From Desulfocapsa sp. (GTDB taxonomy: Bacteria; Desulfobacterota; Desulfobulbia; Desulfobulbales; Desulfocapsaceae), in NCBI GenBank assembly GCA_024763035.1, contig JANTGG010000002.1, forward strand, positions 48,970 through 112,969: a stretch of 64,000 nucleotides of DNA, given 5' to 3'. Below the pieces are notes generated by a model. That model was not told the DNA's origin, did not search any database, and worked only from the letters and a program-made list of their open reading frames with translations. The first letter of the stretch is position 1. Every line of letters starts with the position of its first letter. Position numbers and translations under genes: made by a program. This document shows, piece by piece, positions 44,554 through 62,680 of this stretch.

Positions 44554-45138
44554 TTATCTGGGAATAAGAAAATCCCAGTTGTCCTTTTTGACCGGTTTAT
44601 TTTTTGGTCTGCGGGAGCTGCACTGTTCAGTAAAACATTTTTGCTCTGCGACAATACGGTCAGGATAATAGAGTTTGACCATGTTTCCGATATTTTCATT
44701 TGGATTTTTGCTGTTGTGCTGCAGAACCAGACTGACCCGGTTGTTGTTTTTGTCCACGAAGTTCCATTTCCAGATATGGAGGATACCGAAAGAGTCTCCT
44801 TTCCATTCAGTTGGTTTGCCATACTTCTTTTTGAACTTTTTGAGTAGTATTTGAAAATAGTCTTTGTCGGATTTATAATATTTTAATTTGATTTTGATGA
44901 TTTCCCCCGGGAATTTACAGATTCCATAAGAAATGATTCCCTTGTGAAAACCGTTCCAGTCGTAGACGACAACCTCCTTCATGTAATTTGAGTATTCAAT
45001 GTTCGGATAATCCGTGACATCACTGCCAAGAGCAATGCCGCCGACCTCGCTGGGAATTTTCGTTGCGGCATGTCCACTGGTGGAGAAAAAGAGACAAAGG
45101 ACGAAGAAGGTGATCCCTGAAAGAATAGATGATTTCAC
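44554..45138 (-). CDS. Secreted hypothetical protein
   Basis: Signal peptide (MKSSILSGITFFVLCLFFSTSGHA); heads the three-gene unit ending in pqqD. Confidence 0.72.
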   Translation of the reverse strand: MKSSILSGITFFVLCLFFSTSGHAATKIPSEVGGIALGSDVTDYPNIEYSNYMKEVVVYDWNGFHKGIISYGICKFPGEIIKIKLKYYKSDKDYFQILLKKFKKKYGKPTEWKGDSFGILHIWKWNFVDKNNNRVSLVLQHNSKNPNENIGNMVKLYYPDRIVAEQKCFTEQCSSRRPKNKPVKKDNWDFLIPR

Positions 45139-45350: not shown

Positions 45351-47909
45351 ATGAATAAAAAACAAACAGAAACCAGTGTCCGTGTCACCGAACGTTCCCT
45401 TTTTTACTGGATCCTCCGGCGGCATCGGGGGATGCAGCTGATACTGCTGGTGGTCATTGTTGTCAGTCTGTTTTTTAAGGTGTTTCCCCTGGAGATGCAG
45501 AAACGCATTATCAACCGGGCCATTTATCTGCAGGATATCGACCTGCTCTTCCTGTATTGCGGACTGTATATCGGAGCCGTGACCATTGCCGGGCTATTGA
45601 AGTATGCCATAAATGTGCTGCAGGTTTCCATCGGTCAGAAAATCCTGGTCGAGATGCGTAATGAACTGTACAACCACGTCCTGCAGCTTCCCCTGCAGTT
45701 TTACCGGAAGATGCAGGCAGGGACGGTTATCTCGGCAATGACTGCCGAGCTGAATACCATCGGTTTTTTTCTCGGGGGTGCCATTGCTATTCCTGTGACT
45801 TCCATCCTCACTTTCCTCGTTTTTCTGATTTTTATGATTAATCTCAATCCCTGGCTGGCCCTTCTCAGCACGGGGATTTATCCGGTGGAACTGTTTGTTA
45901 TTCCCTGGCTGCAGAAAAAATATAACAATCTTAATAAAAAACGGGTGCAGACCACTCGGAAAATGTCCAACGTGGTAAATGAGGCGATTACCGGTATTCA
46001 TGAGATTCACGGGAATGCAAGTTATGGACTGGAAGAAAGGAAACTCTCCTCCTTTGTGGATAAGTTGTATGCGTTGATGCGGAGACTGTTTCTGGTGAAA
46101 TACGGGATTAAGTTCGCCAATAATCTCTTCCAGTCTTTCGGGCCGTTTTTTCTCTTTCTGGTGGGCGGGTATATGGCAATTCATGGTCAGTTCACCATCG
46201 GTGCACTTGTTGCCTTTCTTTCCGCCTATGAGAAAATATATGATCCGTGGAAGGAGATGATTGAGTACTACCAGAGCTATCAGGATGCTCAGATTCGATA
46301 TGCACAGATCATGTCTATTTTTGACCTTGATCCCCCCCATCTTCTGCTGCCCGACAATCGTGAGCTGCTCACCCTGCAGGGCAATCTGCAGCTCAATAAT
46401 GTCAGCTTTTCCGTGCCCGGCGGAGTGACTTTGCTGGAAGATATCAACCTTACGGTAAAGGCCAATGAACAGATTGCCCTGGTGGGATATTCGGGGTCCG
46501 GAAAATCCACTCTGGCACTGCTTATAGCTCAGCTCTACGATGCCAGTAAGGGAACTATCAGTATTGACGGCCACGATATCGAGGCAATGAGCAAGGCGGA
46601 TATCGGGAAGAATGTGGCAATGATTGCCCAGCAGCCGTTTATCTTCTCCGGAACGATTTCCGAGAATCTTCTTTACGGGATTAAATCCATCGCCGGGCGG
46701 GTCGAGAGCGTTGAGCGTGCAGAGATTATGGAGGTGGTTCGACAGGTCGGGCTGCAAAATGATATCCTCCGTTTCGGGCTGCAGTCTGTTATTACACCTG
46801 AGAAATGCCGTGCTTTTAAACAAAAATTTCTGCGTATGCGGCAGATAGTCTGTACCACATTGCGGAGTGAGTTTGAAAATGTGATCGAATTTTATGACGC
46901 ACAAAAATATCTGTACTATTCAAATATCAGGGATAATATCGTTTTTGGTGATTCTCTCACCGGTGAGTTTACAATCGAGCACCTTCCTGAGAATAAACCC
47001 TTTCTCAAGCTGCTCCGTGATCTAAGTCTTGAAAAACCTCTGATGACTCTTGGTTATGCCATAGCCACACAGACAGTGGCACTGCTCGCAGATTTTTATG
47101 ACGATGAGTTTTTCTTCCGTCATAATCCCATGGAGATGGTTGAGTACAGAACGTATCAGCAGTTGCTGGAGCGGATGAAGGGACCAGTTCCTGAGGACAG
47201 CGAGGCACGCCGCCTGTTACTGACCCTTGCACTCCGTTTTATTCCAAAAAAACACACCATTGTTTCCTTTCCGTCAGCTCTTGCAGAAAAGATCCTGCTG
47301 GCACGACGCGGCTTTCAGAAACAAATTGTCTTTATCGAGCCGTGTCAGGATCATGGGGAGTTTGCTCTCAAACCCGTCAGTCCGCAGACCGACGAGGAGC
47401 CCACATTTATTCCCTTCTGCCCCAGTGAATATCTATACTCCCGCACTCTTAGGGATAATATCCTCTTTGGTGCAGTAAAGTCAGAGGATATTCTCAATGA
47501 TCATTTCCGTGAACTGGCAGCCAGTGCCTTTGAGGATGAACAGCTGCTGGAAGAAATCATGGAAATTGGTCTGGAGTTTGATGTGGGCAGCAGGGGGGAC
47601 AGGTTGTCCGGCGGGCAGAAACAGAAGCTCGCCATTGCCCGGGCATTCTTAAAAGATGCTCCGATTATTATTCTTGACGAGGCAACTGCGAGTCTTGATA
47701 ATAGCTCGCAGGCACGCATTCAGGGCTTGCTGGAAAGCAAATATAAGGGAAAGAAGACAGTGATTGCTGTCATTCATCGTCTCGATCTGACTCCGGCATA
47801 CGACAGGATCTTTATGATGAAGTCGGGCAGGATTGTTGAACAGGGAAGCTATGACGAGTTAATGGCAAAGAAAGGAGACTTCTATGCACTTGCCAGAACA
47901 GAATCCTGA
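45351..47909 (+). CDS. ABC exporter (TMD plus NBD) with a large insertion inside the NBD
   Basis: Six-TM domain, GYSGSGKS, LSGGQKQKLAIARA, ILDEAT, IHRL; about 300 residues between the Q-loop and the signature motif. Confidence 0.9.
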   Translation: MNKKQTETSVRVTERSLFYWILRRHRGMQLILLVVIVVSLFFKVFPLEMQKRIINRAIYLQDIDLLFLYCGLYIGAVTIAGLLKYAINVLQVSIGQKILVEMRNELYNHVLQLPLQFYRKMQAGTVISAMTAELNTIGFFLGGAIAIPVTSILTFLVFLIFMINLNPWLALLSTGIYPVELFVIPWLQKKYNNLNKKRVQTTRKMSNVVNEAITGIHEIHGNASYGLEERKLSSFVDKLYALMRRLFLVKYGIKFANNLFQSFGPFFLFLVGGYMAIHGQFTIGALVAFLSAYEKIYDPWKEMIEYYQSYQDAQIRYAQIMSIFDLDPPHLLLPDNRELLTLQGNLQLNNVSFSVPGGVTLLEDINLTVKANEQIALVGYSGSGKSTLALLIAQLYDASKGTISIDGHDIEAMSKADIGKNVAMIAQQPFIFSGTISENLLYGIKSIAGRVESVERAEIMEVVRQVGLQNDILRFGLQSVITPEKCRAFKQKFLRMRQIVCTTLRSEFENVIEFYDAQKYLYYSNIRDNIVFGDSLTGEFTIEHLPENKPFLKLLRDLSLEKPLMTLGYAIATQTVALLADFYDDEFFFRHNPMEMVEYRTYQQLLERMKGPVPEDSEARRLLLTLALRFIPKKHTIVSFPSALAEKILLARRGFQKQIVFIEPCQDHGEFALKPVSPQTDEEPTFIPFCPSEYLYSRTLRDNILFGAVKSEDILNDHFRELAASAFEDEQLLEEIMEIGLEFDVGSRGDRLSGGQKQKLAIARAFLKDAPIIILDEATASLDNSSQARIQGLLESKYKGKKTVIAVIHRLDLTPAYDRIFMMKSGRIVEQGSYDELMAKKGDFYALARTES

Positions 47910-47910
47910 A

Positions 47911-48417
47911 ATGGAAGGGATTTCACATCTCACGGATACCCAGGAATTTATTGAGAAACTTGCGGTATTTGCAGGGGCTCCAGAGGGTGTTTCCAGGATG
48001 TTTGCCTATCTTGCCAGGAGAGAAAAATATAGCAAAGGACAGGTGATCCTCGAGCAGGGGAAAGAGTGTGACCGTTGTTTTCTCATTATCTCGGGACAGG
48101 TTGATATCTTTCAGATGCATCATGATCGACGGTTTCATGTGCAGCTGTTAAGCGATGATTCAATCAATTATTTCGGAGAGCTGGCACTGCTTGCTGAGTT
48201 TAACTGGTTTTTCTCGGCAAGGGCGTGGACAGATGTGGTGCTGCTCTCCATCAGCCGGGAGGCATTCAGCAAGGTGCTGGAGCGGTATCCGGAATCGTAT
48301 CAGAAGATGGTGCAGAAAATTATTACCCTTCGTATCCAACGTTTTTCTGCTCAGACCAGCTATCAGCTCGATCATCTTGCCCCGGATGCCTGGCGGGAGG
48401 ATCCGCCGGAGGAATAA
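47911..48417 (+). CDS. Stand-alone cyclic-nucleotide-binding domain protein
   Basis: ILEQGKECDRCFLIISGQV, YFGELALL; starts 1 bp after the ABC stop. Confidence 0.85.
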   Translation: MEGISHLTDTQEFIEKLAVFAGAPEGVSRMFAYLARREKYSKGQVILEQGKECDRCFLIISGQVDIFQMHHDRRFHVQLLSDDSINYFGELALLAEFNWFFSARAWTDVVLLSISREAFSKVLERYPESYQKMVQKIITLRIQRFSAQTSYQLDHLAPDAWREDPPEE

Positions 48418-49802: not shown

Positions 49803-51761
49803 TCAATATGCCATATGTCCCAGGGATTTCATAATAAGGGCCAGTCCCATGGCAAACATGCCGGTGAGTCCCATACCGCAGGAGAATCCGGCAAGGAGCA
49901 CGGGGGCATACTGTCGCCACATGGGACCGTAGCGTTTGAGGAAAAAATAACGACCGGCAAACGCTCCGATCACTTCCAGGATAAGGCCATGGGGGGTGGA
50001 TTGGCCCAGTCCGCGCACCACTCCGTATATAAGGAGTATGGGCAGTCCGAAAAGACTCAGTATAAAATACATGATAAGTCCAAAACCAAGACCTGAAAAC
50101 ACTGTGGTACCGTTTAATGCCTGGTAGAACATGGAGTTGCCTTCCAGGGTTGAAGTCTGCATCAGCAGGGTGTTCAGGGCCTGCAGGTGCCACAACTCCT
50201 GGGCGTATGGATAGGCGGAAGAGGGGATGGGGGCCAGCCGCCAGATGAACTGGGAAAAGAGCAGACTTGCCACCATAACAATGGGAAAGACCACAATCTC
50301 GGCCTTGATGATTCCCCGAAGAGATGTGCCGGTGAGTTCAATCTGTCGAAACTGAACCGTTGCCTCCCCGTAGTTGTGGATGGGAATGGGAGCGTACCAG
50401 ATCTCAATTCCGTGATAGCCGAAAAAACGTGCTCCGGCAATAAAACTTGCCTCCCGCACCAGGGGCAGGCTGACAAACTGACCGGCGATTCCCTCCATTC
50501 TGGCAGTGATGTAAGAGATTACAGGGGTATAGATGAAACCGTAACCGAGAAAGAATATCCATGGAAAGGAAGGAACAAGCCAGACACAGAGTGCCACATA
50601 GGCAAGCGTGGAAAAAACGTAAATACCGATGGCTATCCAGAAATCAAAATCTCCCCGCCCTTCAGGCGGATGAAACAGATCACGCAGGGTTCCCATATCC
50701 GCCCTGGTGTGACGGTATGAGCGAAACACCGACCAGACTCCGATAACGCCAATGGCGAGCCCCAGTCCGATGCCAAAACTCATATAGAAATCAAAGTTAT
50801 TGGCAAAAACCGTGTCCACTGTTGCCATGCCGGGATGCCAGCGCTGCAGCACACCGTGGGCATAGAGGATGGGGTTCAGGATAATGGTGATGAGAAGACC
50901 GATCAACCCGCCGATAACAGCCCAGAACGGCAGCACCATCCCGATAAAAACAAGCCCGAGATCTAGCTGTATCCCGGTGGCAACGGCAGGCAGGACATCT
51001 TCGGTGTGATTGGTGAGTTCAACCCAGGGGATAGGGATAAGGTGGATTGGTTCATTGAAGATCAGTCCGGAGGCAATGGGCAGAAGTACGTAAATCGAGC
51101 CGAACAGCAGCCCGATGACTCCGCCGATGGAAAACACCCGCCACTTCCAGCTTTTCTTCTTTTCCTCTGTGGATTCGGCAAGTGCCATGGTCCCAAGAGC
51201 CCCAACGGGAGCCATGGGAAAGGGGAGCTTCTCCACATCCGAGGTGATGCGGTAGAGGGCATAGCCCAACCCGAAATGATCAATGCGCTGAATGATCTGG
51301 GAGCCCACAAGGAGGAGGATGGGAATCAGCCAGTCTCGGTGGAAAAATGACCGTTCCACCATGGAAAGCGATTCGGGGGCGGGCGCTACCCAGCTGGGGA
51401 TATATTCGGTCAGTCCAAGCATTCGTGCTGCATCAGACTGAACCAGGTACTGATTCCAGAGCAGCCCGGAAAAGGGGGAGGCAAGGGCTGCACCCGCCAT
51501 ATAGTAGAGCAGGAAAATCTCCTGTTGTTTCAATTCGGAGTGGGCGCGCTTTGCCACTTCCGCAAAGAGGATGATGGTCACCCAGCGGGCGGCGGGGCCT
51601 ATCCCCTGACCGATAACGAGCTGCAGGTACATGGAGCCCGGCATCATCAAAAAGCCGATAAAGACAGCCCCCACCACAGTCTTCCAGTCAAACCCCTCTT
51701 CGAAATGATCAGGAGGTTTTAGAAGGTCTCGATATTCTTTAAGTTCCTTGTCGTCGTACAT
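49803..51761 (-). CDS. OPT-like polytopic membrane protein (putative peptide transporter)
   Basis: About 16 hydrophobic segments; N-terminal GFDWKTVVGAVFIG and EKLPFPMA motifs resembling the OPT family. Confidence 0.72.
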   Translation of the reverse strand: MYDDKELKEYRDLLKPPDHFEEGFDWKTVVGAVFIGFLMMPGSMYLQLVIGQGIGPAARWVTIILFAEVAKRAHSELKQQEIFLLYYMAGAALASPFSGLLWNQYLVQSDAARMLGLTEYIPSWVAPAPESLSMVERSFFHRDWLIPILLLVGSQIIQRIDHFGLGYALYRITSDVEKLPFPMAPVGALGTMALAESTEEKKKSWKWRVFSIGGVIGLLFGSIYVLLPIASGLIFNEPIHLIPIPWVELTNHTEDVLPAVATGIQLDLGLVFIGMVLPFWAVIGGLIGLLITIILNPILYAHGVLQRWHPGMATVDTVFANNFDFYMSFGIGLGLAIGVIGVWSVFRSYRHTRADMGTLRDLFHPPEGRGDFDFWIAIGIYVFSTLAYVALCVWLVPSFPWIFFLGYGFIYTPVISYITARMEGIAGQFVSLPLVREASFIAGARFFGYHGIEIWYAPIPIHNYGEATVQFRQIELTGTSLRGIIKAEIVVFPIVMVASLLFSQFIWRLAPIPSSAYPYAQELWHLQALNTLLMQTSTLEGNSMFYQALNGTTVFSGLGFGLIMYFILSLFGLPILLIYGVVRGLGQSTPHGLILEVIGAFAGRYFFLKRYGPMWRQYAPVLLAGFSCGMGLTGMFAMGLALIMKSLGHMAY

Positions 51762-51785
51762 AGATAAAACAGGTGTCAGGGTTAA

Positions 51786-51846
51786 GGTACTTATACCCCT
51801 CGCGGGGGTACTGAAAAGAGTACCGGCTTGCTATTCATCACCGGTG
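51786..51846 (+). repeat. 61-bp structured repeat family B, copy 2
   Basis: Ungapped match to 25852-25912; 17 bp from a family A copy. Confidence 0.8.
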
Positions 51847-51863
51847 TTATATGTATTCTTTCA

Positions 51864-51955
51864 TGATTACCACTGAAGCTCAGGTACATGCAAAATGGAA
51901 CTGTAGGGCGAGCTCTTACATCCAATCCAGATTACTTGTACTTTGATGGTAGTCA
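51864..51955 (+). mobile_element. MITE-like family A, copy 4 (core collapsed to GTAGGGCGAGCTCTTAC)
   Basis: TGATTACCACTGAAGCTCAGG...CTTTGATGGTAGTCA. Confidence 0.75.
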
Positions 51956-52009
51956 CTTATTCTTTTGTGCATGCAGTTGCATGTGAACTCCCTTTGATCA
52001 ATCAATCGC

Positions 52010-54007
52010 TCAGTTTGGCAGTACCTGATAGCCGGAATCCGTAAACAGACCGACAATTGCCCAGCCGCCGCCCATAAGGAAATCGCCGATGATAAGTCCG
52101 ATAAAGAAAAACTGGATTTTCTTAAAAAGGGACACGCCGCCGTACCGCATGCATAAGGCGTTGCATGCCCAGCCGATAAAAAAACTTATCCAGAGGATAC
52201 GCATGGCAGAACTGTAGGCGGTAAGATAGCCAAGGGGATGAATGGGCCACCAGTAAAAACGGTGGTAGCAGAGCACCAGAACCAGCATGACCACAGCACC
52301 GAGAAGGGCAAAGGCGGTGATCCATCCACCGGCATCCACAGGTGTTGTAATCAGCCTGTTGATATTTTCAAACATTGTCATGACTGTACGGCTGGACCAT
52401 TCAACCTGCAGCTCGCGGATGCCATAACGGTAATAGAGTGTCATCATGGCAAGGATTGAGGCACCGGTACTGATCAGGATGGTAAAGAACAGTCCGGAGA
52501 AAAGAAGCACCCCGGGGCGATGGCCATGCTGCAGTTTTCTGGCATGCTGCAGGGAGGGCATCAGGGATTCCCGAAGATCCACGAAAAGCATTTTTTGAGC
52601 CATACCGCTGAGAACACTGTTTATCCCGGAAAAGAGCTTGCTTCCGCCCATAACAAGTAGTCCGTCCATGGGGGCAGCAGTGAGAGTGAAGTAGGCAAGT
52701 CCACCCTGACAGATAATCCGGGTTGCCACAAGCATAATCATAAAGCCTGCACAGAAGAAGAGAAAGGCTGTGGAGAGGGCCATGCCAAGGGCTGTCGCCC
52801 AGTAGAGCAGCCCGGCAAAGCAGAGTATGCAGCCCCAGAAGGAAATGCGAACGTCAAACCATTCGGTTCTGGCAGAATGGGATTTTGTCAGAAAGAGGGA
52901 TTGTTTCGTGACATTCAAAAGATGTCTGCGTGCAAGCCACAGGAGAAAGAAAAAGAACACCCCGTAGGCACCGAGCATCTGGGTCTCTTCAGGGCGGGCA
53001 AGGGTGGGACCGAAGGTGATGCCAAGTTCTGAGACAGGTATGTTGTACCCAAGGAACCCGAGGAAACCAAAAAAGAAGCCGCCCAGGATAAAAAAGAACC
53101 AGAAACTGAACGAGATCTGTCTGGAGGTGAGAAAGGCAAATCCGATAAAGGCGGGATAGATGTAGATCTTCAGTTTGTGAAAGCCAGCCAGTAACCCGTG
53201 GTTGGGGAAATAAGGACCTGCCAGAATCAGGGTCGGCAATTGGGGGACAGAGGGATAATAAAAATGAAATCCATTCAGCAGATGGAGAAAGACCGGGATC
53301 AGCAGACCGGCGAGGAGAAAGCGGTTGGCAAAAAAACTGCCCACCTGACCTTCGTCCAGTGATTTGCTGAGCATTTCCGGCACACGGAGCAGCGGAAAGC
53401 TGATGCGTTCGTTATGAATCCACTGGCGGGAAAGCAGGTTGATAACAAAGAGCATGAACCCGTAGGAGAGCAGAATAAATGTTCCCCACACGAGTAGCGG
53501 GCTTGTCCATGCCTGCCAGGGGATATTTTGCACAACCTCCAGCCAGCCCATATCCCGTCCGCCATGCAGACCGGTATAGAGCAGGTCAATGGCTGCGTTA
53601 TCTGTGGGAGTGAGGGCTGCAGGCAGGAGTGGATGCAGACTTTCCTGCCACATATTACCAACATTTGCATGCTGGATGGGAATGGTCAGGCTGAGGAGGA
53701 AGGTCCTGGCAAGCCCGGTGTAGGCGATTCCTGAACCGATAACCATCTCAATCCACACTACAAGCAGCTCGCTGCCCGTGAAAAGGGGCAGGGAAGTGCG
53801 GAAAATTTTTTTGCCAAGGGCTGTCAGGATAATAAGCAGGACAAAAATAAAGAAGGGAGCAAGGGGAAAATGTCCGCCGCCAAGGGGGGTTGCCTGCTGG
53901 TAGATATTGTTAAAAGGGGTCAGCAGACAGATGGCAACAGCCAGTATCATTCCTGCGGTAACGGCACGCAGGCGGATAGCTCTCCTTTTTGTGTTCTTTT
54001 CAGCCAT
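52010..54007 (-). CDS. Polytopic membrane protein, probably DUF6785 family, OPT-like (start ATG 54007)
   Basis: RAVTAG N-terminus, QWIHNERISFPL, WWPIHPLGY, FFIGLIIGD motifs recalled for this family; 8-nt overlap with the upstream gene. Confidence 0.65.
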   Translation of the reverse strand: MAEKNTKRRAIRLRAVTAGMILAVAICLLTPFNNIYQQATPLGGGHFPLAPFFIFVLLIILTALGKKIFRTSLPLFTGSELLVVWIEMVIGSGIAYTGLARTFLLSLTIPIQHANVGNMWQESLHPLLPAALTPTDNAAIDLLYTGLHGGRDMGWLEVVQNIPWQAWTSPLLVWGTFILLSYGFMLFVINLLSRQWIHNERISFPLLRVPEMLSKSLDEGQVGSFFANRFLLAGLLIPVFLHLLNGFHFYYPSVPQLPTLILAGPYFPNHGLLAGFHKLKIYIYPAFIGFAFLTSRQISFSFWFFFILGGFFFGFLGFLGYNIPVSELGITFGPTLARPEETQMLGAYGVFFFFLLWLARRHLLNVTKQSLFLTKSHSARTEWFDVRISFWGCILCFAGLLYWATALGMALSTAFLFFCAGFMIMLVATRIICQGGLAYFTLTAAPMDGLLVMGGSKLFSGINSVLSGMAQKMLFVDLRESLMPSLQHARKLQHGHRPGVLLFSGLFFTILISTGASILAMMTLYYRYGIRELQVEWSSRTVMTMFENINRLITTPVDAGGWITAFALLGAVVMLVLVLCYHRFYWWPIHPLGYLTAYSSAMRILWISFFIGWACNALCMRYGGVSLFKKIQFFFIGLIIGDFLMGGGWAIVGLFTDSGYQVLPN

Positions 54008-57000
54008 GTGTACTTTCTCCCGTACCTGCTGCCTGCCTGCTTTTTTCCGTGAACTCCAGGAAGTGTTTGCCATAGTATGTGTGGCTGGCAGCATCAGTGG
54101 AACGCCAGACCAGCAGCTGTTTGCGTATTTCATGGAGAAAAGAGGTGGCGATTCGTTTCCAGATCTGTTCTTCACCGGAGCGGCGTTCCATGCTGATCTT
54201 TATTTCCAGATAGGAAGAGTCCTCCCGTGCCGGACAGAACTGGATGTCAACCCGCTGCATGATGCCGAAGTCAAAGGGGGCGAGCCAGACATTTGCCCGG
54301 AAATAGGTACAGTGGATTTCGTGGGGTTTATCACTGGCATTGATGACATCCCGCATCTCATCGATATTGCAGCAGCTCGAAACAATTTCCACGGGACCTG
54401 TGGAAAAAAGACCGTGGGAGACATCCTGATGGGAGGAAAAATAGTTGTAGATAAAACCGCAGATGGAGTTGTGTTCGCTGTATTTCATAAAAAACGGAAG
54501 GGTAACAGTGATACGGTTATTAATCACCGGCGGCAGGCTGAATGATGCATTCACATCGGGAATGGCTATGCGGGCGGCAACACGTGAGGGATAAACAACA
54601 GAGAGAAGGACAACAGCAATAACAAGAATCATGGCGGCAACACCTGCCATGGAGGAGTAGTTCACTGTGAGTCCTGCCCAGAGGGGCGTGTCTGCAAAGA
54701 GCGAGGCGGATACCTGCGCCAACAGGTATCCGAGAACCACCGAGATTACAGCCAGAGCCAGCGCTTCAGCCACAAAGAGAAAGGAAACATGGGAGGGGGC
54801 AAGTCCCACGGAGGTATAAATGGCAATCTCATTTTTTCGTTCGTAGACGGAACTGATCATGGTGTTGAGAACGATGAGGATGGAGATAAACAGCGGAATG
54901 AGAATATTGGGGACACCGCTGTACTGCATGGATTCATTCTGGTTGTAGAGGTAGACCCCGTCTTTCTCACCGGCAAAGATGGCAGTGGAAAACCGGTCTG
55001 TCATACGTTCAGCAGTTTTGCTGATGGGTGTTTCGGCATTTGGCAGGACGGCAAGGTTCTTAAGTTTTCCTCCCAGGGTAAGGAGGGTGGAGGCGGGAAT
55101 AATTCCAACCCGGGAAGCCGGGATATGGTGATAGCGGCTCTGGAAGGAGCGGACATCATCCCCTGATTCCATGGCATCCTTTTCCACTTCGGTGATGTCC
55201 CCTGCTGATTCGTCGGGGAAGGTCACGGGGGTAAGCGGTTCGCCGTCAAGATCCAGAGTCTGGTCAAAGTCTGTTCCCTTAAAAGTACCGACCACTGTGA
55301 AGGGGCACCCCCATATCTGTACGCTTGCCGAACCATCCGTTGCTATACTAAGAGCATTTACCATATCTTCACTGAGAATGATTGCCGCCCGGTCGTTTTT
55401 ATTGAACCAGCGTCCGCCCGTGAGCAGTTTGTCCAGCCCGGTGACCTGTGCTTCGGCGGGGGAGAGCCCGATCAGTCCCTGCAGCTCGGCATGTTTCCTG
55501 CCATTTTGCAAAGAGATGTGGACTGTCTGTGCCGGATTTTTTGCTTCCAGCCAGATGCGTGGTGCCACGCTGCCGGCATTTTGAAAGCCGTCAGCAAGTC
55601 CGTCCACTGCCTCCACCGGCAGGCTTCGCCAGTCCACCTGTTTTAAGAGCAGTCCCAGGTAGGGAGAGTGTTCCTGGAAGAACAGTTTGTTCTGTCTGGT
55701 CCCGGATTTTACCGTGGTAAAACTCATAATGGTAAAGGTAAGGATAATAAGGGTCAGACATGTGAGAATGGTGCGCATCCTTCGCCGCCGCAGGTTGGAG
55801 ACCCCGAGGAAGAATGCTGCTGTAAAGGCCTTCCAGTGACTGATCTCTGCCGGTCGTTTATGACTGGCACGCCGCTGCAGGAGGATCATCTCTTCTTCGA
55901 AACGAAAGAAGATGATAAGACTCACCATCAGCGAGAGACCCAGGATGAAAAAGGCGAGGATCACCACCGTTGGACTGTACGCCAGGCGGAATGCCGGATG
56001 AACCTGATAGATCACGGTTATCAGCAGAAAGAGGATGGTGGAAAATCCCACAATACGTTTGTAGATATTGGCGAAATTGAAGAGAAAACGTTCCATGCAG
56101 AAGGCAAACGGCACAAAGAGGGCAATGTAGAACAGTACCCCGAAGAGCACATCCTTCTGGGTCTTTTCCACTTGCACATACACACGGTTGGCAAGGGCAA
56201 GGGACTCTGAGGAAAAGCTGGAAAACCGGGCGTAATCAAGGTTTTTGAGGCTGTCTCCGGCATTGAGTAATGCCGTGATACCGCGTTCTTCAAGGTTGTT
56301 GATCTTGGCATCAAAAATGCCGTGGTTCTCCAGATTCTGTATCCGGGGAGCAAGCAGTGTCCAGATGTCGCGGGCCGCCTGATAGACCGTGTTGGGTATT
56401 GTCTGGTATTTGTCCACGGAGTAGCCGAGTCCCATTGGGTTTTTTTCCGTGCCGTTGGTGAGTATCATCTTCCGGTTGAGCACATTATCGGAGAGGGTGG
56501 CTTTCAGCCAGGTTCCCGGTTCGGTATAGATGGATGCCATGGTGGAATCACGGGTATCTATGCGGCTGTACCAGTAGTGCTGCGGCGGAGCATCCCGTCG
56601 TCCGTCGAAGAGCTTGAGCTTGGTGAGATAGTTGAAATTACGGGGTTCAAGCAGACCGAAGATTGTGGTTTGCCGGCAGCTGAAGAGGATCAGATCCGTT
56701 TTAACCAGCCGTTTTTTTATCTTCACCCGATAGTGTTTTTTGCCAGTTTCTTTTTTGTCTATTGCCCAGATGACCTGCCCTGTTTTCTCGTCAAACCGGT
56801 AGCCTTCAATAATCAGCTTATCGAGTACATGCTTTTTGTCGGCAATCCCCTTGATCCGAAAGATGCCGGAAGAGTTGACGGTTGTATGGTATTTCTGCAT
56901 GCCCTGATAGGCAAGGAGGACGGTCTTGGCAGCGGGGTAATCGGCAAAGAGCTCACCCTGCAGGAGCAGGTTTGCACGTCCACGGATGGTGGAAAAACCG

Positions 57001-58841
57001 TTTCGCGGTTTCTTGCCGGTGTGCAGGGGCGCGGTGCCGGCAAGGGTCTCAATCATATCTCCCACAAGAAGAGCCTGCTCTTCCAGACTCTTCCAGTTGA
57101 TATGCTTTGGAATATCCCAGGGGGTACCCCATAATGCCCGGGCATCTCCGGTGGTGACCAGACTGATGCCGACATAGCCGGCAAGGGATGCCACTTCTCC
57201 GCCCAGCGGAGGTTTGTCAAGAAACCAGGAGTCCCAGGAACGCATGTGGCTGGAGTGCAGAGTGTCGTGATAGGGGGTCGTGCTGCTGCTTGCGGCAACA
57301 GTTTCTTCAAGAAGATCGGCAATGGGGGAGAAGATACCTGTGCGATTCACCTGCATCTTCAGGTTGTATAAAAATCCCTGGTGAAAAGCCCCTATTCCAT
57401 TGCCATGACTGGAGAGATGGAGGGAAACCATGGCAGCAATGTCATAGCCTTCAACCAGTTCCCGAAAGGCATAGGCACTCTTCAGGTTCTTGAGATGTGT
57501 TTTGAGTTCTTTTTTTCGGCGTTTATTGGTCTTTATGGAAGCGGGAACAGCAGCCAGAAAGAGTTTGTGCTCATCGTCGCCCAGATCGTGAAAGCTGCTT
57601 CGCCAGCCCATCCTTTTGTAGAGCAACCGTGTTCTGGAGAGTTCATTAATATTTTTTTTCCTTTCTTCGCTCTTGTCGCTAGCCATTCGCAGAGTGTTGA
57701 GTCTGCGGGAGATATCATCCACGGAGAGTTTGATATAGTCGCTCATTGCCTCGCTGAGTACCGAGTCCCTTTCCATATCTTCGGTGAGGGGCCAGCTGAG
57801 CGATTCCAGAACGGCAAGATTGGCACTGGTTTGTTTCAGATCTTTTTTCAGCTGTTTTTTCTGTTTTTTTAAATATTTTGATTTGGAGTTGATGGACCAG
57901 ATAAGATCTCGCATTCCGGCAAGGGATTCATTGTGACCACTTGTGGCAACGAAGAGCACCGATTTCTTTGGTGGATTTTTTCTCAGTCTGTCAATGGTCT
58001 GCAGCAGGGTGGCAATGGAGGCAGCTTCATCGGCGCCGGGTGCTTTGCCGGAAACAAAGGAGGAACTGTCGTAAAACGCCTCTATGACCAGTAGCTGTCT
58101 GGCAAGTTCCGGATCTGTGCCGGGAATAACAGTGTAAATATTTTCTGCGGTGATTTCCTGCCACTGAACCCGGCTGTTGATATTTACTTTTTCTGCAAGT
58201 AGACCGGGCGTGTCGGGAAGAGTTATTGGCAGAGTGGAGAGAAATTGTTGTAATCCCTGCTTTTCCATCCAGAAGCAGGGGAGCTGGATGGGAGTGAGCT
58301 CCTCTTTTTCCTGGAACATATATTTTGAATGTACATCCTGGGTGTTCAGGTAGATAATCGCCTTAACACCCAGTGCCGCCAGCTGCTGCCACCGTTGTCC
58401 GGAATCAAAATCCAACACCACCACAGCTCCGGAAAGGGGCAGTCCCTGCAGGTCTGACCAGGTGCCTGATTTTACGTAGTAGAGTGGGCCGCTCAAGGCA
58501 CCATCTGTTGTTTCCGGGGTAATGGCATTATAGAAAAGGGTGTTGAGTGCAAGTGTTTTCCCATCTATCTGCAGGTTGGCGTCTTTCACCTTGCGTACAG
58601 TCAGGGCAAAACGGTAGGTTTCAGGGGTGAGTCCCATCTGCTGCAGCTGCGCTTTGATAAAAGCCGCACTTTCCCTGCTTCCTTCACTGCTGCCTGTTCT
58701 TTCGGAGAAACTGCTGAAGGTTTCTATCTGCTGTCGCAGGGACAGGGAGGGGACAGCTGCTGTTTTGGCAGAGACAGGGTAAAGAAAGAGAGCTGCAAGA
58801 AAAAACAGCAGTCCGGTTCTGTGGAGAGAAGAGGAAGACAT
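54000..58841 (-). CDS. 1613-aa fusion: M28-peptidase-like/PA domain, TM bundle and MacB/FtsX permease
   Basis: Signal peptide; EAFYDS...PGADE and FVATSGH M28-like motifs; NLRRRRMRTILT (MacB TM1); SVYERKNEIAIYTSVG (FtsX). Confidence 0.8.
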   Translation of the reverse strand: MSSSSLHRTGLLFFLAALFLYPVSAKTAAVPSLSLRQQIETFSSFSERTGSSEGSRESAAFIKAQLQQMGLTPETYRFALTVRKVKDANLQIDGKTLALNTLFYNAITPETTDGALSGPLYYVKSGTWSDLQGLPLSGAVVVLDFDSGQRWQQLAALGVKAIIYLNTQDVHSKYMFQEKEELTPIQLPCFWMEKQGLQQFLSTLPITLPDTPGLLAEKVNINSRVQWQEITAENIYTVIPGTDPELARQLLVIEAFYDSSSFVSGKAPGADEAASIATLLQTIDRLRKNPPKKSVLFVATSGHNESLAGMRDLIWSINSKSKYLKKQKKQLKKDLKQTSANLAVLESLSWPLTEDMERDSVLSEAMSDYIKLSVDDISRRLNTLRMASDKSEERKKNINELSRTRLLYKRMGWRSSFHDLGDDEHKLFLAAVPASIKTNKRRKKELKTHLKNLKSAYAFRELVEGYDIAAMVSLHLSSHGNGIGAFHQGFLYNLKMQVNRTGIFSPIADLLEETVAASSSTTPYHDTLHSSHMRSWDSWFLDKPPLGGEVASLAGYVGISLVTTGDARALWGTPWDIPKHINWKSLEEQALLVGDMIETLAGTAPLHTGKKPRNGFSTIRGRANLLLQGELFADYPAAKTVLLAYQGMQKYHTTVNSSGIFRIKGIADKKHVLDKLIIEGYRFDEKTGQVIWAIDKKETGKKHYRVKIKKRLVKTDLILFSCRQTTIFGLLEPRNFNYLTKLKLFDGRRDAPPQHYWYSRIDTRDSTMASIYTEPGTWLKATLSDNVLNRKMILTNGTEKNPMGLGYSVDKYQTIPNTVYQAARDIWTLLAPRIQNLENHGIFDAKINNLEERGITALLNAGDSLKNLDYARFSSFSSESLALANRVYVQVEKTQKDVLFGVLFYIALFVPFAFCMERFLFNFANIYKRIVGFSTILFLLITVIYQVHPAFRLAYSPTVVILAFFILGLSLMVSLIIFFRFEEEMILLQRRASHKRPAEISHWKAFTAAFFLGVSNLRRRRMRTILTCLTLIILTFTIMSFTTVKSGTRQNKLFFQEHSPYLGLLLKQVDWRSLPVEAVDGLADGFQNAGSVAPRIWLEAKNPAQTVHISLQNGRKHAELQGLIGLSPAEAQVTGLDKLLTGGRWFNKNDRAAIILSEDMVNALSIATDGSASVQIWGCPFTVVGTFKGTDFDQTLDLDGEPLTPVTFPDESAGDITEVEKDAMESGDDVRSFQSRYHHIPASRVGIIPASTLLTLGGKLKNLAVLPNAETPISKTAERMTDRFSTAIFAGEKDGVYLYNQNESMQYSGVPNILIPLFISILIVLNTMISSVYERKNEIAIYTSVGLAPSHVSFLFVAEALALAVISVVLGYLLAQVSASLFADTPLWAGLTVNYSSMAGVAAMILVIAVVLLSVVYPSRVAARIAIPDVNASFSLPPVINNRITVTLPFFMKYSEHNSICGFIYNYFSSHQDVSHGLFSTGPVEIVSSCCNIDEMRDVINASDKPHEIHCTYFRANVWLAPFDFGIMQRVDIQFCPAREDSSYLEIKISMERRSGEEQIWKRIATSFLHEIRKQLLVWRSTDAASHTYYGKHFLEFTEKSRQAAGTGESTHG

Positions 58842-58867
58842 GGTGCGTTACAGTGTCTGCAGGCAGA

Positions 58868-59596
58868 TCAGCTGTTCATCCCTCCCGTATGAATTTCCAG
58901 TTCGTCCCGTTCCTGAATCTTCTCCACCTTTCCGTCCCGAATCCAGATAACCTGATCCGAGACGTTCAGCATTTTGAAATCATGGGTGGCTGAAATAACC
59001 GTTACCCCCTGGTTTGCACTCATCTCTTTTAAGAGAGAAATGACCTCTTCACCGGTTGCCAGGTCGAGGTTGCCGGTGGGTTCATCGGCAAGGATGATGG
59101 CGGGACTGTTTGCAAGGGCACGTGCCACGGCAACCCGCTGCTGCTGACCGCCGGAGAGCTCAGACGGCTTGTGGTTATGACGCCCTTCCAGCCCCACCTG
59201 CCTGAGCAGTTTCATGCCGCGTTCAGTGGAGGCTTCTCCCGGCATGCCGCCAAAGGTCATGGGCAGGGTGACGTTTTCCAGGGCTGTCATCACAGGAATC
59301 AGGTTGAATGTCTGAAAGATATAGCCGATCTTTCGGCAGCGAAGCCAGGCGAGTTCGTATGCGTCGAGTTGAGCAATATCCACTTCATCAATAAAGACCT
59401 TCCCCGCAGTTGGTTTGTCCAGTCCTCCTATCATGTTGAAGATAGTGGATTTTCCTGATCCAGATGGACCCATGATTGAGACATATTTACCGGTTTCAAT
59501 GCTGAGGTCGATCCCTTTCAGGACCTTGACCACGATTTTCCCGAGATCAAAATCTTTTGTGACATCGGTTACCCGAACGATATTTTTTACACTCAT
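58868..59596 (-). CDS. LolD/MacB-type ABC ATPase
   Basis: GPSGSGKST, LSGGQQQRVAVARAL, LADEPTGNLD, ATHD. Confidence 0.93.
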   Translation of the reverse strand: MSVKNIVRVTDVTKDFDLGKIVVKVLKGIDLSIETGKYVSIMGPSGSGKSTIFNMIGGLDKPTAGKVFIDEVDIAQLDAYELAWLRCRKIGYIFQTFNLIPVMTALENVTLPMTFGGMPGEASTERGMKLLRQVGLEGRHNHKPSELSGGQQQRVAVARALANSPAIILADEPTGNLDLATGEEVISLLKEMSANQGVTVISATHDFKMLNVSDQVIWIRDGKVEKIQERDELEIHTGGMNS

Positions 59597-59631
59597 ATAC
59601 TGAGGTCCTTCACCACCGCTTTGGAGATGGG

Positions 59632-60282
59632 CTACTGTTCTACACGCATTGCCTCAACGGGCTGCATCCGGGAGGCTATTATCGCCGGATACAAAACCCC
59701 AATGAGGCTGAGACTGATTCCAATAAGTACGGATGTTGCCATGGAGAGAACAAAAGACTGATAGGGAGGGGTGGCAAATGCCTCACTTCCGAAACGAAAC
59801 CAGGCAGTGAGAACGGCAAACAGACCCCCGCCCAGAGCACCAATGACTGCCCCGGCAAAACCCTGCATGGCAGCTTCCATGACAAAGATACGAACGATAA
59901 AGCGGTCAAGTGCCCCCAGACATTTCATGGTGCCGATTTCCCGGAAGCGTTCGCTGACGGACATCAGCTGGGCATTAATAATGCCCACGATGCAGACCAG
60001 CATGGAGAGGGTGAGAATCCACCGCTGTTTGGGAGATGATGCGAGACTGGTATCTCCGGGGAGCACGTCATAGCCGCAGCGGATAAGGGTCTGGCACGTG
60101 GTGTTGTCACCGCTTGCAAGCATTCCATCTGCGATATTGATGCTGATTTGGGAAAATGCCAGAAAGGAAACGGCGAGAACCAGGGTTACAGTGGTGACGA
60201 TGGAGCGAAAGAAGCGGGCACGGATTGATTTGTAGGCAATCTCCACGGATTTGCTCCAGGGCAGCACGATAAGGCGGCTCAT
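59632..60282 (-). CDS. Minimal FtsX/MacB-type ABC permease with almost no periplasmic domain
   Basis: SIRARFFRSIVT (TM1), a loop of about 40 aa, SVSERFREIGTMKCLGA. Confidence 0.85.
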   Translation of the reverse strand: MSRLIVLPWSKSVEIAYKSIRARFFRSIVTTVTLVLAVSFLAFSQISINIADGMLASGDNTTCQTLIRCGYDVLPGDTSLASSPKQRWILTLSMLVCIVGIINAQLMSVSERFREIGTMKCLGALDRFIVRIFVMEAAMQGFAGAVIGALGGGLFAVLTAWFRFGSEAFATPPYQSFVLSMATSVLIGISLSLIGVLYPAIIASRMQPVEAMRVEQ

Positions 60283-60324: not shown

Positions 60325-62520
60325 TCAGGATGAGGGTTTTGCTGCCAGCTGGTCTTTAATCACCTGGTACATGGTTTCCGGATGCAGGGGTTTGCTGATA
60401 TAGTCATCCATGCCGGCATCAAGGCATTTTTGCCGATCACCCTGTATGGCATGGGCGGTCATGGCAATAATGGGGATATGGCCGCCTGTCAGTTTTTCGT
60501 GATCCCGAATGGCTTTGGTTGCCTGGTAGCCGTCCAGTTCAGGCATCTGTATGTCCATCAGTATAGCATCAAATGATTCTTTTTTGAAGCATTCAACTGC
60601 TTCACGTCCATTGGCAGCAGAAACAATGGTGATCCCCTTTTTTTCCAGGAGTGCTTTGGCAAGCAGCAGGTTGACAGTTTCATCTTCAGCAAGCAGAATA
60701 ACCGCATCCTGAAACGGCGATCGCCGGTTGGATACTATTTCTTTTGTCTGTTTCATTGCTACACTGTCTTGCTCCGGGAGCTTGAAATGGCTGATAAACC
60801 AGAACGTCGTTCCTTTGTTTTTCTCACTGATAAGATGCAGCTTTCCACCCATCAGCCGGCAGAGTTGGCTGGAAATCGTAAGTCCCAGTCCTGTTCCGCC
60901 GTATTTTCGTGTGTGTGAGGTGTCCGCCTGGGTAAATGATTCAAAAACACGATCCTGTTCCTCTCTGGCAATTCCTATGCCGGTATCTTTTACTGCAAAG
61001 TAGAGGGTACAATGACCGTCCTGTATTTCCTCCAGGTGGATTATGAGGGAAACCGATCCGACCTGAGTAAATTTTAAGCCATTATTAACAAGATTTGTTA
61101 ATATCTGCATCAGACGTGTGGGGTCTCCGATAAGTTTTTCGGGAATATCGGGAGCAAGGTAGCTGCGTAACTCCACCTTCTGGCTGTCTGCCTGGGGAGC
61201 CATTAGAAAAAAGAGTTCGTTTATTTTTTCCTCAAGGGAAAAAGGAATGGCTTCGAGCTGCAGCTTGCCCGCTTCGATTTTGGAAAAATCGAGTATACTG
61301 TTGATCACGTCAAGCAGTCTGGTGGTTGAACTGTCGACTATCTGCAGCTGTTGCCGCTGTTCCCGGGAAAGCTCACTGTTTAACAAAAGGTTCGTCATCC
61401 CCATAATACCGTTCATGGGAGTGCGGATCTCATGGCTCATGTTTGCCAGAAAATCACCCTTCGCCTTGTTGGCACTTTCCGCCTCATCCCTTGCCTGGAT
61501 AAGAGACTTTTCCGTATTTTTACGCTGTTCGATCTCCTTTACCATTTTTGCTGTGAGCTGTCTTTCTGTGTTTTTTGAGATAAAATTTATGGTCAGCAGA
61601 TAACCAAGGACGATGGAAAGAAACAGGACGGTGAGAACAGTCGGATAGACAGGCTGCTTTTTTTCAAGGGTGTATACATGCCAGCCGGGAAGATCAATCG
61701 GGGTCACTGCAACTCTGTAGGAAGTGTTGTCGAGCTGCACGTCATCTTCTGTGAGGTCAAAAGGGAGATCGGATAGCGGTTCGTTTCCAAACTGTCTGGA
61801 TTGTATGAGTTTCTCCTTTTCCCGGGCGGGCAGAGGTCTGCCTGCATGAAAGAGCCACTGGTCGTATCCATTGGAAGTGGCGAAGACAATATCCGTATCA
61901 GAGAGCAGAAAGGAGATCCTGGGAGTATTATCGGTGAGTATGGCGGAGAGCTGTTCCATTCCCGATTTAATGACCACCACACCCACGACTGTTTCCTGAT
62001 TGTCGCGTATGGGAGAGCTGAAATAGAGTCCGCGTTTATTGGTGGTTACTCCAAGGGCAGCGTAACAGTAACTGTGCCCTGCCATGGCGTTGCTAAAGTA
62101 GGGGCGGAAGCGGTAGTTGTTTCCCTGCAGTATGATGTCGTCGCTGGTGCTGGAGGCTGTTACCAGTCCTTCTTTATTCATCACATAGACAAAGGCTGCA
62201 GCAAGGATATCTCTTACAGCAGCTAACTCAGCGAGCAGTGCTTTTCCCGGCGCAGGTTCTTTCTGGAGGGCACTGCTGAGGATTTCAGGTCGTCTGCCCA
62301 GTTTCCGGGTGGCATTGGTGAACTGTTTTGTCAGAAGGGAATTGATATGGTCGGCGGTTGTTGCGGAGTGGCGGATATTATTTTTGATACTGTATATCTT
62401 TTGTCCCTGGAGGACAATGAGGAGCATAACCATAAAAACCAGCAGACAGTTGAGAAACAGGAAGAGGAGCTTCTTTCTCAGGGCATCATGGGTAGCGGCA
62501 ATTCGAACTGGGTTTGTCAT
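60325..62520 (-). CDS. Hybrid histidine kinase (DctB-like Cache, HisKA, HATPase, REC)
   Basis: [10 protein letters not shown] Cache motif, [30 protein letters not shown]. Confidence 0.92.
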
Positions 62521-62647
62521 ACCATGGTGATGAGCAGATTTTTCCGGTGCCGGAGTGAGCTGAATGATTGTCTCGGTGGATCATCTCCTGCAAGCATATC
62601 GTGTTCCCTGTGGACTTGTCAATGAATACGATTCCCAGTTTTTAATG

Positions 62648-62680
62648 AAAAAAAAGGGAAGACCTGTCAAGGTCTTCCCT
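62648..62680 (-). terminator. Intrinsic terminator after the tatA genes
   Basis: AGGGAAGACC-N6-GGTCTTCCCT followed by a T tract on the minus strand. Confidence 0.85.

Follow-up and report, generated by a model that had tools for sequence, protein, structure and literature searches.

A conserved inner-membrane gene set from Desulfocapsa combines a putative type VII ABC motor, a peptidase-derived head and predicted OPT-superfamily proteins

Results

Organization of the locus

The window considered here is a 64,000-nucleotide stretch of DNA from Desulfocapsa sp. (GenBank assembly GCA_024763035.1, contig JANTGG010000002.1), and our subject is a group of five open reading frames (ORFs), all on its minus strand between positions 49803 and 60282, that encode a small FtsX-type permease, an ATP-binding cassette (ABC) ATPase, a giant permease with a peptidase-like head and two large polytopic proteins. 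A first-pass annotation of this DNA had presented them as five co-directional genes, and our ORF calls are identical, reproducing its coordinates, lengths, spacing and domain content. Its proposal that these five make up the unit did not hold, since two genes further downstream, encoding p288 and a PqqD-like protein with the fold of a RiPP recognition element (RRE; RiPP, ribosomally synthesized and post-translationally modified peptide), are also conserved members of the system, as judged by their homology to cluster genes of other phyla. The five genes would be the larger half of a conserved inner-membrane system with at least seven parts, which in the window are laid out as follows:

59632-60282, minus strand: mini-FtsX permease, 216 amino acids (aa); PF02687 at 1.5e-18
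58868-59596, minus strand: MacB/LolD/FtsE-type ABC ATPase, 242 aa; PF00005 at 3.9e-34
54000-58841, minus strand: giant permease, 1613 aa; FtsX and Peptidase_M28 matches
52010-54007, minus strand: DUF6785/DUF6784 polytopic protein (hereafter DUF6785), 665 aa; PF20581 at 4.9e-161 (537 bits) and PF20580 at 8.1e-36
51762-52009, minus strand: intergenic gap between the P5 and DUF6785 genes, 248 bp; no significant structure or repeats
49803-51761, minus strand: P5, a predicted divergent OPT-superfamily permease, 652 aa; homology via intermediates
43682-44548, minus strand: p288, a predicted cytoplasmic Cys/His protein, 288 aa; homologues in clusters of other phyla
43321-43719, minus strand: PqqD-like (RRE-fold) protein, predicted cytoplasmic, 132 aa; PF05402

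Gaps of 35 bp and 26 bp separate the mini-FtsX, ATPase and giant genes, the DUF6785 ORF begins with an ATG at 54007 that gives an 8-nt overlap with the stop of the preceding giant gene, and the 248-bp gap precedes P5. Repeats had been reported in this last gap. It contains only 8-nt direct and imperfect inverted repeats, no more than chance would give, its fold z-score is 0.01, a search of it for a precursor peptide met no significant fold or repeat, and its length is not conserved, relatives having anything between 8 bp and over 400 bp. Scans for consensus promoters and terminators inside the cluster were uninformative. The family assignments themselves were borne out in Pfam and NCBIfam, which found FtsX in the mini and giant permeases, a partial Peptidase_M28 and DUF6785.

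The components are inherited and lost together

Scanning species-representative genomes with the giant protein yielded 80 loci from Desulfocapsaceae and other Desulfobulbales, Desulfobacterales and Desulfatiglandales, and the order mini-FtsX, ATPase, giant, DUF6785, P5 is kept in all of them as far as the contigs reach. Of all the components P5 varies least, at 80-94% identity across these loci (82-94% for full-length matches, across two orders), with a length fixed at 652-653 aa and about 45-50% identity across phyla; the ATPase follows at 73-93%, DUF6785 at 51-79% and the giant at 46-78%. The conservation of P5 across orders and across phyla suggests an important physiological role. In a phyletic survey of 151 genomes drawn evenly from the phylum, the periplasmic half of the giant, P5 and DUF6785 (above its cut-off) occurred in an identical set of 9 genomes in six families, a coincidence whose nominal chance of 1e-14 is inflated by relatedness. 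The parts are inherited and lost together, and the expectation that the genes would co-occur beyond this genome is borne out by the 80 loci and the 9 of 151 genomes. DUF6785 was found in none of 14 control model genomes. All parts are present in genome G143, where the giant lies about 14 kb from the DUF6785-P5 pair (C1:122416-143651), and in G109, where P5 is on a contig other than that of the giant and DUF6785 (C25 and C31).

Compact clusters elsewhere were found via the contexts of P5 homologues at 40-50% identity, and the components in these other phyla are mutually homologous with the window genes. In gene order, the Firestonebacteria cluster comprises DUF6785, giant (with M28, PA, MacB_PCD and FtsX matches), P5, p285, PqqD, mini-FtsX and ATPase, with overlapping genes; that of Armatimonadota comprises giant, P5, p262, PqqD, mini-FtsX and ATPase; and that of Poribacteria comprises a giant of 2333-2471 aa, P5, p314, PqqD and ATPase, one locus holding two P5 paralogues that are 78% identical. 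The compact order met most often in these three phyla and many metagenome contigs is giant, P5, p285, PqqD, mini-FtsX and ATPase, to which DUF6785 may be added. Metagenomes were scanned with a cross-phylum profile of the giant, and 443 relatives, in loci without taxonomy, were confirmed among 600 candidate stretches; gene context was counted in the 37 loci that extend 6.5 kb or more beyond the giant on its downstream side. P5 adjoins the giant in 29 of these; giant, P5, PqqD, mini-FtsX and ATPase follow one another in this order in 15 (p285 being present in 14 of the 15); and DUF6785 is present in 5. DUF6785 and mini-FtsX are dispensable in some lineages. The survival of the linkage through the shuffling of gene order across phyla argues that the parts form one functional unit.

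The giant permease carries a degenerate M28-like head

The giant permease opens with a signal peptide, which the PA/M28-like head follows; a middle periplasmic region then leads to three extra transmembrane (TM) helices, a MacB-type FtsX module and, at the end, a cytoplasmic C-terminal domain. The protein shares 29-31% identity over about 1150 aa with the giants of three other phyla. Its principal elements are:

57042-58724, minus strand: PA and M28-like periplasmic head, about aa 40-600; cross-phylum profile matches to the PDB
57432-57884, minus strand: Lys-rich predicted helical or coiled-coil insertion of about 150 aa, about aa 320-470, which splits the M28 fold
55902-56159, minus strand: three extra TM helices ahead of the FtsX module, about aa 895-980; hydropathy and alignment
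54564-55784, minus strand: MacB-type FtsX module, about aa 1020-1426, with TM1, a periplasmic domain of about 270 aa and TM2-4; PF02687 and PDB profile
54003-54563, minus strand: cytoplasmic C-terminal domain of about 190 aa, about aa 1427-1613; invariant columns within Desulfobacterota and across phyla

The large subunit had been predicted to contain a peptidase-like module, and the fold is indeed PA/M28-like; the canonical set of co-catalytic zinc ligands (His-Asp-Glu-Asp-His) with its general-base Glu is not preserved. Peptidase_M28 (PF04389) matches aa 234-315 at 29.2 bits (cut-off 21.3), covering only profile positions 1-78 of 193, and a cross-phylum profile of the head matches the PA-containing M28 aminopeptidases 2ek8 (2.4e-18) and YwaD (1.5e-12) over aa 32-336, as well as the transferrin-receptor apical domain (1e-5), with a weak hint of Nicastrin; in the Firestonebacteria orthologue the PA domain scores at its cut-off. 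When the head is aligned to the Vibrio aminopeptidase, the window protein and its Desulfobacterota relatives have F256 in place of His97 (Y in other phyla), H303 in place of Glu151 (H in other phyla) and N304 in place of Glu152 (F in other phyla), and retain Asp117 as D271 (D or E in other phyla); at the two positions that were aligned by eye without a hidden Markov model (HMM) match, they have H475 for Asp179 and G572 for His256 (D in other phyla in both cases). The canonical M28 di-zinc site thus appears to be absent family-wide in the four phyla examined. H303 is a new conserved histidine, and H475 and H479 are conserved in Desulfobacterota; because these replacements are conserved, a re-wired metal site built on H303, H475 and H479 is possible. 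Given the degeneracy of the canonical site, the earlier suggestion that ATP drives a periplasmic peptidase-like module is better put as a reading in which ATP would move a peptidase-derived binding or regulatory head. The Poribacteria head additionally contains LysM domains, which score 38 bits (cut-off 20.9).

No part of the giant is better conserved between phyla than the extra TM helices, with the near-invariant block EKTQKDVLFGVLFYIALFVPFAFCMERFLF...HPAF..YSP.VVILAFFI.GLSL.V.LIIFFRFEEEM, and the two patterns used for the metagenome scan, drawn from the cross-phylum alignment, fall within them. A profile of the FtsX module matches MacB (5gko) at 7e-13, and also YtrF, LolF and LolC. MacB_PCD (PF12704) has no match in the window giant, although about 270 aa separate TM1 from TM2 there, and scores 32.1 bits (cut-off 27) in the Firestonebacteria orthologue. 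The C-terminal domain, with its motifs HQDVSHG.FSTG, WLAPFDFGI.Q and RKQLL.WR, has no Pfam or PDB match and no recognised relative.

The mini permease and ATPase resemble type VII ABC components

PF02687 recognises both permeases above its cut-off of 25.5 bits, the mini at 67.4 bits and the giant at 44.5 bits (aa 1315-1425). Four TM segments were read in the mini-FtsX from five overlapping hydrophobic windows of a hydropathy scan, the periplasmic loop between TM1 and TM2 being only about 45 aa long, and the protein shares 40-41% identity with the mini-FtsX of the Firestonebacteria and Armatimonadota clusters. In the ATPase, Walker A (GPSGSGKST), the signature motif (LSGGQQQR), Walker B including the catalytic Glu (ILADEPTGNLD) and the H-loop are intact. 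Its counterparts in the clusters of three other phyla share 67-69% identity with it, and its gene is linked to mini-FtsX in all 15 of the 15 complete metagenome clusters. The assignment of the permeases and ATPase to the MacB/Lol/FtsX (type VII) kind is upheld by Pfam and NCBIfam models and by PDB profile matches, and we infer that the mini and giant permeases together with two copies of the ATPase form a type VII ABC motor.

The best NCBIfam matches of the mini-FtsX and the ATPase are LolCDE-type models, at scores far under the equivalog cut-offs. The ATPase scores 229.1 against 307.75 for LolD (TIGR02211) and 204.9 against 264.85 for FtsE (TIGR02673), and lies under the MacB cut-off as well; LolC/LolE (TIGR02212) is not reached at 50.6 bits against 362.45, nor is FtsX (TIGR00439) at 26 bits against 255. 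Elsewhere in the genome are genes for a separate FtsX of 297 aa and for two permeases with FtsX domains, 429-435 aa long. With the cut-offs missed and separate FtsX-domain genes present, the cluster was rejected as the genome's own LolCDE or FtsEX, and the presence of the separate permeases indicates that the system is no replacement for the housekeeping ones.

P5 and DUF6785 are distant OPT-superfamily paralogues

Both polytopic proteins had been called OPT-like, and both prove to be OPT-superfamily relatives via intermediates, but P5 lacks a direct family match: it hits no Pfam or NCBIfam family even at E<=10. PF03169 (OPT) has no direct match in P5 or the DUF6785 protein, and none in 31 related genomes. 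Among the homologues of P5 (998 cluster representatives at E<=1e-3), proteins at 28-33% identity (E ~1e-50 to P5) match PF03169, one of them over its full length at 2.7e-15, and NCBI names on some P5 records include 'peptide transporter' and 'OPT family oligopeptide transporter'. An AlphaFold2 (AF2) model of DUF6785, with a predicted local distance difference test (pLDDT) of 62 and a predicted TM-score (pTM) of 0.66, had barley YS1 (7wsr) as its sole credible Foldseek match, with probability 1.00 and TM-scores of 0.40/0.44, the next candidate reaching at most 0.12. Comparison of multi-phylum profiles of DUF6785 and P5/OPT with hhalign gave a probability of 98.8% and E 8.9e-17 over 585 columns; shallow comparisons of P5 with DUF6785 had given nothing, or a weak C-terminal match only, and the homology emerged with the multi-phylum profiles. 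Profiles of the two proteins had no matches among PDB sequences. Because of the transitive PF03169 matches, the YS1 match and the hhalign result, we place P5 and DUF6785/6784 in the OPT superfamily as deep paralogues. Since HvYS1 works as a homodimer, being a proton-coupled elevator carrier (PMC9691689), it is reasonable to expect that P5 would pair with DUF6785 or, in clusters that lack DUF6785, with a second copy of itself.

In four P5-family representatives of 860-1083 aa (P0126, P0128, P0130 and P0144), a WD40/Reg_prop beta-propeller or a PDZ domain is inserted in a loop equivalent to the one near aa 545 in the window P5, a hint that this loop may engage protein or peptide ligands. A P5 homologue at 48% identity directly follows a TP_0789-like (LolA-like) gene with no giant nearby in L082:2192-4781, and also in L083 and L084. 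Poribacteria loci (L085:9809-9985 and L090:7245-7412) hold a conserved ORF of 55-58 aa between the giant and P5; as a protein with two TM segments it was ruled out as a precursor peptide.

Two cytoplasmic partners, p288 and the PqqD-like protein

Some 5 kb downstream of P5, on the same strand, are the genes for p288 and for the PqqD-like protein; a nitroreductase gene and a divergent gene pair for an ABC exporter and a cyclic nucleotide monophosphate (cNMP)-binding protein intervene. Neither p288 nor the PqqD-like protein shows a TM segment or export signal in a hydropathy scan. p288 has the invariant motif CxxC...[C/D]H and, at E 0.0086, weakly resembles the zinc ribbon of eL43. Its homologues are encoded immediately after P5 in Poribacteria (p314), Firestonebacteria (p285) and Armatimonadota (p262), and p288 occurs in 5 of the 9 system-positive genomes, directly after P5 in 3 of those 5, against 0 of 142 negative genomes. 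Comparison of p288 with the giant's C-terminal domain, whose extraction was poor, gave no homology signal. The PqqD-like protein scores 35 bits on PF05402 (cut-off 23.4), stays under every NCBIfam PqqD equivalog cut-off and has homologues, at E 1e-20 to 3e-12, in the PqqD genes found in the clusters of three other phyla. The pair lies within a few kb of the cluster in about 35 related loci. No precursor peptide or tailoring enzyme is conserved with the PqqD gene in any cluster examined.

Discussion

Type VII ABC systems are few, and MacAB, LolCDE, FtsEX, BceAB, HrtBA and YbbAP have each revealed a distinct envelope process. The view that no characterised system has the composition found here agrees with our full-text literature search, which returned nothing for DUF6785, DUF6784 or their Pfam accessions and no paper combining FtsX, M28, PqqD and OPT. 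FtsEX with its partners EnvC, PcsB, CwlO or RipC, a mechanotransducer that controls cell-wall hydrolases, is alike in joining an FtsX-fold permease to an FtsE/MacB-type ATPase and in placing a helical or coiled-coil element and a (pseudo)peptidase domain outside the cytoplasm (the LytM domain of EnvC is also catalytically dead); LysM is present in one lineage of the giant head, that of Poribacteria. FtsEX differs in that its partner is a separate protein, whereas here the head is fused to the permease and derives from PA/M28 rather than from LytM, CHAP or NlpC/P60; in the two unequal permease subunits and the fixed OPT-fold, PqqD-like and p288 partners of the present system; and in the FtsX and FtsE equivalog cut-offs, which remain unmet in a genome with its own 297-aa FtsX. 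LolCDE and LolF likewise pair two different FtsX-type permeases with one type of ATPase, and LolC and LolF are among the PDB matches, but here the scores are far under the LolCDE cut-offs, the mini subunit is almost without a periplasmic domain and no LolA or LolB is linked. The YbbAP-TesA system of E. coli (PMC12646458) physically dedicates a MacB-type motor to a hydrolase-fold periplasmic partner; in the system described here that partner is fused, has an M28 fold without the canonical catalytic site and is joined by OPT-fold and cytoplasmic proteins.

The remaining parts also depart from their nearest characterised counterparts. P5 and DUF6785/6784 resemble the OPT/Yellow-Stripe-like carriers (TC 2.A.67, PF03169; HvYS1, 7wsr) in their length of about 650 aa, their many TM segments and their full-length distant homologues or fold relatives, and a set of two paralogues is compatible with the dimeric YS1 assembly; the known carriers, however, act alone as proton symporters with no ABC motor, and neither protein here reaches PF03169. 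Transferrin receptor and nicastrin likewise combine a PA domain with an M28-like fold whose metal ligands are lost, and serve for binding without hydrolysis, whereas the present head is bacterial, fused to an ABC permease and endowed with new conserved His residues. The PqqD-like protein has its fold in common with PqqD/RRE proteins and differs from them in lacking a RiPP context.

In the reading that we prefer, and to which we give about an even chance, a type VII ABC mechanotransducer whose fused pseudo-peptidase head resembles EnvC would work together with OPT-fold carriers on a peptide-like and possibly cell-wall-derived ligand. In such a mechanism, ATP hydrolysis by two ATPases would set the periplasmic parts of the mini and giant permeases in motion without a transmembrane substrate path through them, as in FtsEX, LolCDE, MacB and YbbAP. 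The part to be moved would be the pseudo-peptidase head with its helical insertion, fused in cis, and in place of M28 cleavage it would capture, present or gate a peptide-like ligand. The transmembrane path would be supplied by the OPT-fold proteins, as a P5/DUF6785 heterodimer or a P5 homodimer, whose docking site on the giant may be its three near-invariant extra TM helices. On the cytoplasmic side, the PqqD-like protein and p288 could take charge of the ligand or control the motor. Hints of a peptide, protein or cell-wall ligand come from LysM in the Poribacteria head, from the PDZ and beta-propeller domains in P5 homologues and from the RRE fold of the PqqD-like partner. As to direction, import of a periplasmic, possibly peptidoglycan-derived, peptide is slightly favoured by analogy, because the characterised OPT members are all importers (PMC3061005), because of the LysM and PDZ hints and because a Candida OPT member imports peptidoglycan fragments (PMC12284242).

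Several observations weigh against this mechanotransducer reading. The DUF6785 model is mediocre (pLDDT 62) and its YS1 match modest (E 6.6e-3, TM-score about 0.4); the AF2 model of P5, built on a 14-sequence alignment, is unusable at pLDDT 31, because the alignment was too shallow and P5 too conserved among the input loci. The peptidoglycan idea draws on LysM in one lineage and on analogy, and a cytoplasmic RRE-like partner would suit export of a cytoplasmic peptide as well as import. Poribacteria clusters have no mini-FtsX gene, so the heterodimer would not be obligatory. In the metagenome loci, 11 of 37 contain the giant-P5 pair with no ATPase, mini-FtsX, p285 or PqqD nearby, and 7 of 37 the giant alone, so that ATP coupling may not be universal, unless the genes are scattered as they partly are in the window; the genes that follow giant-P5 in such loci are unrelated housekeeping or restriction-modification genes, and offer no functional hint for that reason. 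Finally, the sequencing runs that contain the locus are vent-metagenome DNA only, with no RNA run among them.

The rival that survives best, though we regard it as unlikely, is that the system exports or matures a cytoplasmic ribosomal peptide: the PqqD-like RRE protein and p288 would recognise it, the OPT-fold proteins would move it outward, and the ABC motor with its peptidase-like head would process it, release it or pass it along in the periplasm, as part of a signalling-peptide or RiPP-like pathway. All characterised PqqD/RRE domains are cytoplasmic binders of precursor peptides, the NCBIfam models matched by the PqqD-like protein are all peptide chaperones, and this protein and p288 lack export signals. 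Several type VII ABC systems, among them MacB, DevCA and PvdRT, also have a role in export (review PMC5985334). What tells against peptide export is that no precursor, radical-SAM, cyclodehydratase, lasso protease or other tailoring gene is conserved in the clusters examined, that the small Poribacteria ORF between giant and P5 is a two-TM protein, that no outer-membrane duct or adaptor gene is linked, that P5, at 82-94% identity across orders, is unlike natural-product genes, and that importers account for all characterised OPT members (PMC3061005).

Returning to the mechanotransducer reading, a more specific form of it would be a composite transporter, in which the type VII ABC motor is permanently wired to OPT-fold elevator carriers through the giant's extra TM helices, the ATP-moved head passes peptides from the periplasm, such as peptidoglycan stem peptides or the C- or N-termini of proteins, to the carrier, and the cytoplasmic RRE-fold and zinc-ribbon proteins receive them. 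We hold this to be quite unlikely; if true, it would represent a retro-translocation or recycling pathway without characterised precedent.

Extraction of a lipid, lipoprotein or glycolipid, with a LolCDE- or YbbAP-like motor and the OPT-fold proteins as flippase-like partners for a lipid-linked, possibly glycosylated, intermediate, is a weaker alternative than peptide export, and we judge it improbable. The closest permease and ATPase models include LolCE/LolD, LolF and DevA, and YbbAP-TesA (PMC12646458) shows a type VII ABC system that pairs with a hydrolase to extract hydrophobic compounds; moreover, one P5 homologue (48% identity) stands beside a LolA-like TP_0789-family gene, and GT28-like, GT4 and GT2 glycosyltransferase genes together with DUF2334 flank the cluster in about 36-42 Desulfobacterota loci and one metagenome locus. 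That glycosyltransferase linkage, however, is the synteny of one phylum and is absent in the window and in other phyla, no LolA/LolB-like gene is conserved with the giant, the separate 429-435-aa FtsX-domain permeases could fill LolCE-type functions, and the PA/M28, LysM, PDZ and RRE features point to peptides over lipids. Very improbable, finally, is that the ABC system and OPT-type importers are independent neighbours, for instance peptide-uptake genes beside an unrelated efflux or division-like ABC system: P5-family genes do occur with no giant nearby (a Latescibacteria locus and L082-84), and giants with no P5 nearby in 7 of 37 metagenome loci, but mere adjacency is disfavoured by the perfect coincidence of giant, P5 and DUF6785 across the 151 genomes, a linkage that outlasts gene-order shuffling in at least five phyla, gene overlaps of 4-26 nt, and cluster ATPases that are 67-73% identical across phyla, as for a dedicated orthologue.

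The system is conserved in at least five phyla and 443 confirmed metagenome stretches, and its partner set, comprising predicted OPT-fold carriers, a seemingly dead peptidase head and an RRE-fold protein outside a RiPP pathway, is unlike that of any characterised system. As of 2011, no bacterial OPT member had been characterised biochemically (PMC3061005), and the system would offer a first functional context for bacterial OPT-superfamily proteins, for DUF6785/DUF6784 and for a non-biosynthetic RRE. Because cultured, non-pathogenic organisms possess it, including Desulfotalea psychrophila, Desulfopila aestuarii and Desulfosediminicola flagellatus, the question is testable.

Neighbouring genes and additional observations

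Three further features of the window flank or interrupt the system:

60325-62520, minus strand: dCache hybrid histidine kinase; Pfam
45351-48417, plus strand: ABC exporter (852 aa), then cNMP-binding protein, between P5 and p288/PqqD
44554-45138, minus strand: exported 194-aa protein, upstream of p288, with an N-terminal hydrophobic segment

The hybrid histidine kinase gene lies 42 bp upstream of mini-FtsX and is co-directional with it, and it is found there only in close Desulfocapsa relatives; by this comparison it is lineage-specific context and no core member. Immediately upstream of the kinase gene, at 62593-62680 on the minus strand, are a strong terminator-like hairpin (11 pairs and a T-run) and then a promoter-like site scoring 10/12, an arrangement compatible with a transcription unit running from the kinase into the cluster. 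The exported 194-aa protein has no Pfam or NCBIfam family and is kept beside p288/PqqD in 32 related loci, only within Desulfobacterota, which leaves its membership uncertain. The downstream nitroreductase is not conserved in relatives. About 33-36 related Desulfobacterota loci likewise have the ABC-exporter/cNMP pair downstream of the cluster.

In L004:2256-8454 and about 35-42 other Desulfobacterota loci, genes for GT28-like and GT4 glycosyltransferases, a His_Phos_1 phosphatase and DUF2334 lie upstream of mini-FtsX. The DUF2334 gene is on the same strand at a median of 270 bp from mini-FtsX in these relatives, and the window has the histidine kinase in that place. In clusters of other phyla, the gene that follows the ATPase encodes a PilZ-domain protein in Firestonebacteria (L089:11126-11548) and a Peptidase_M16_C protein in Armatimonadota (L087:14969-15958).

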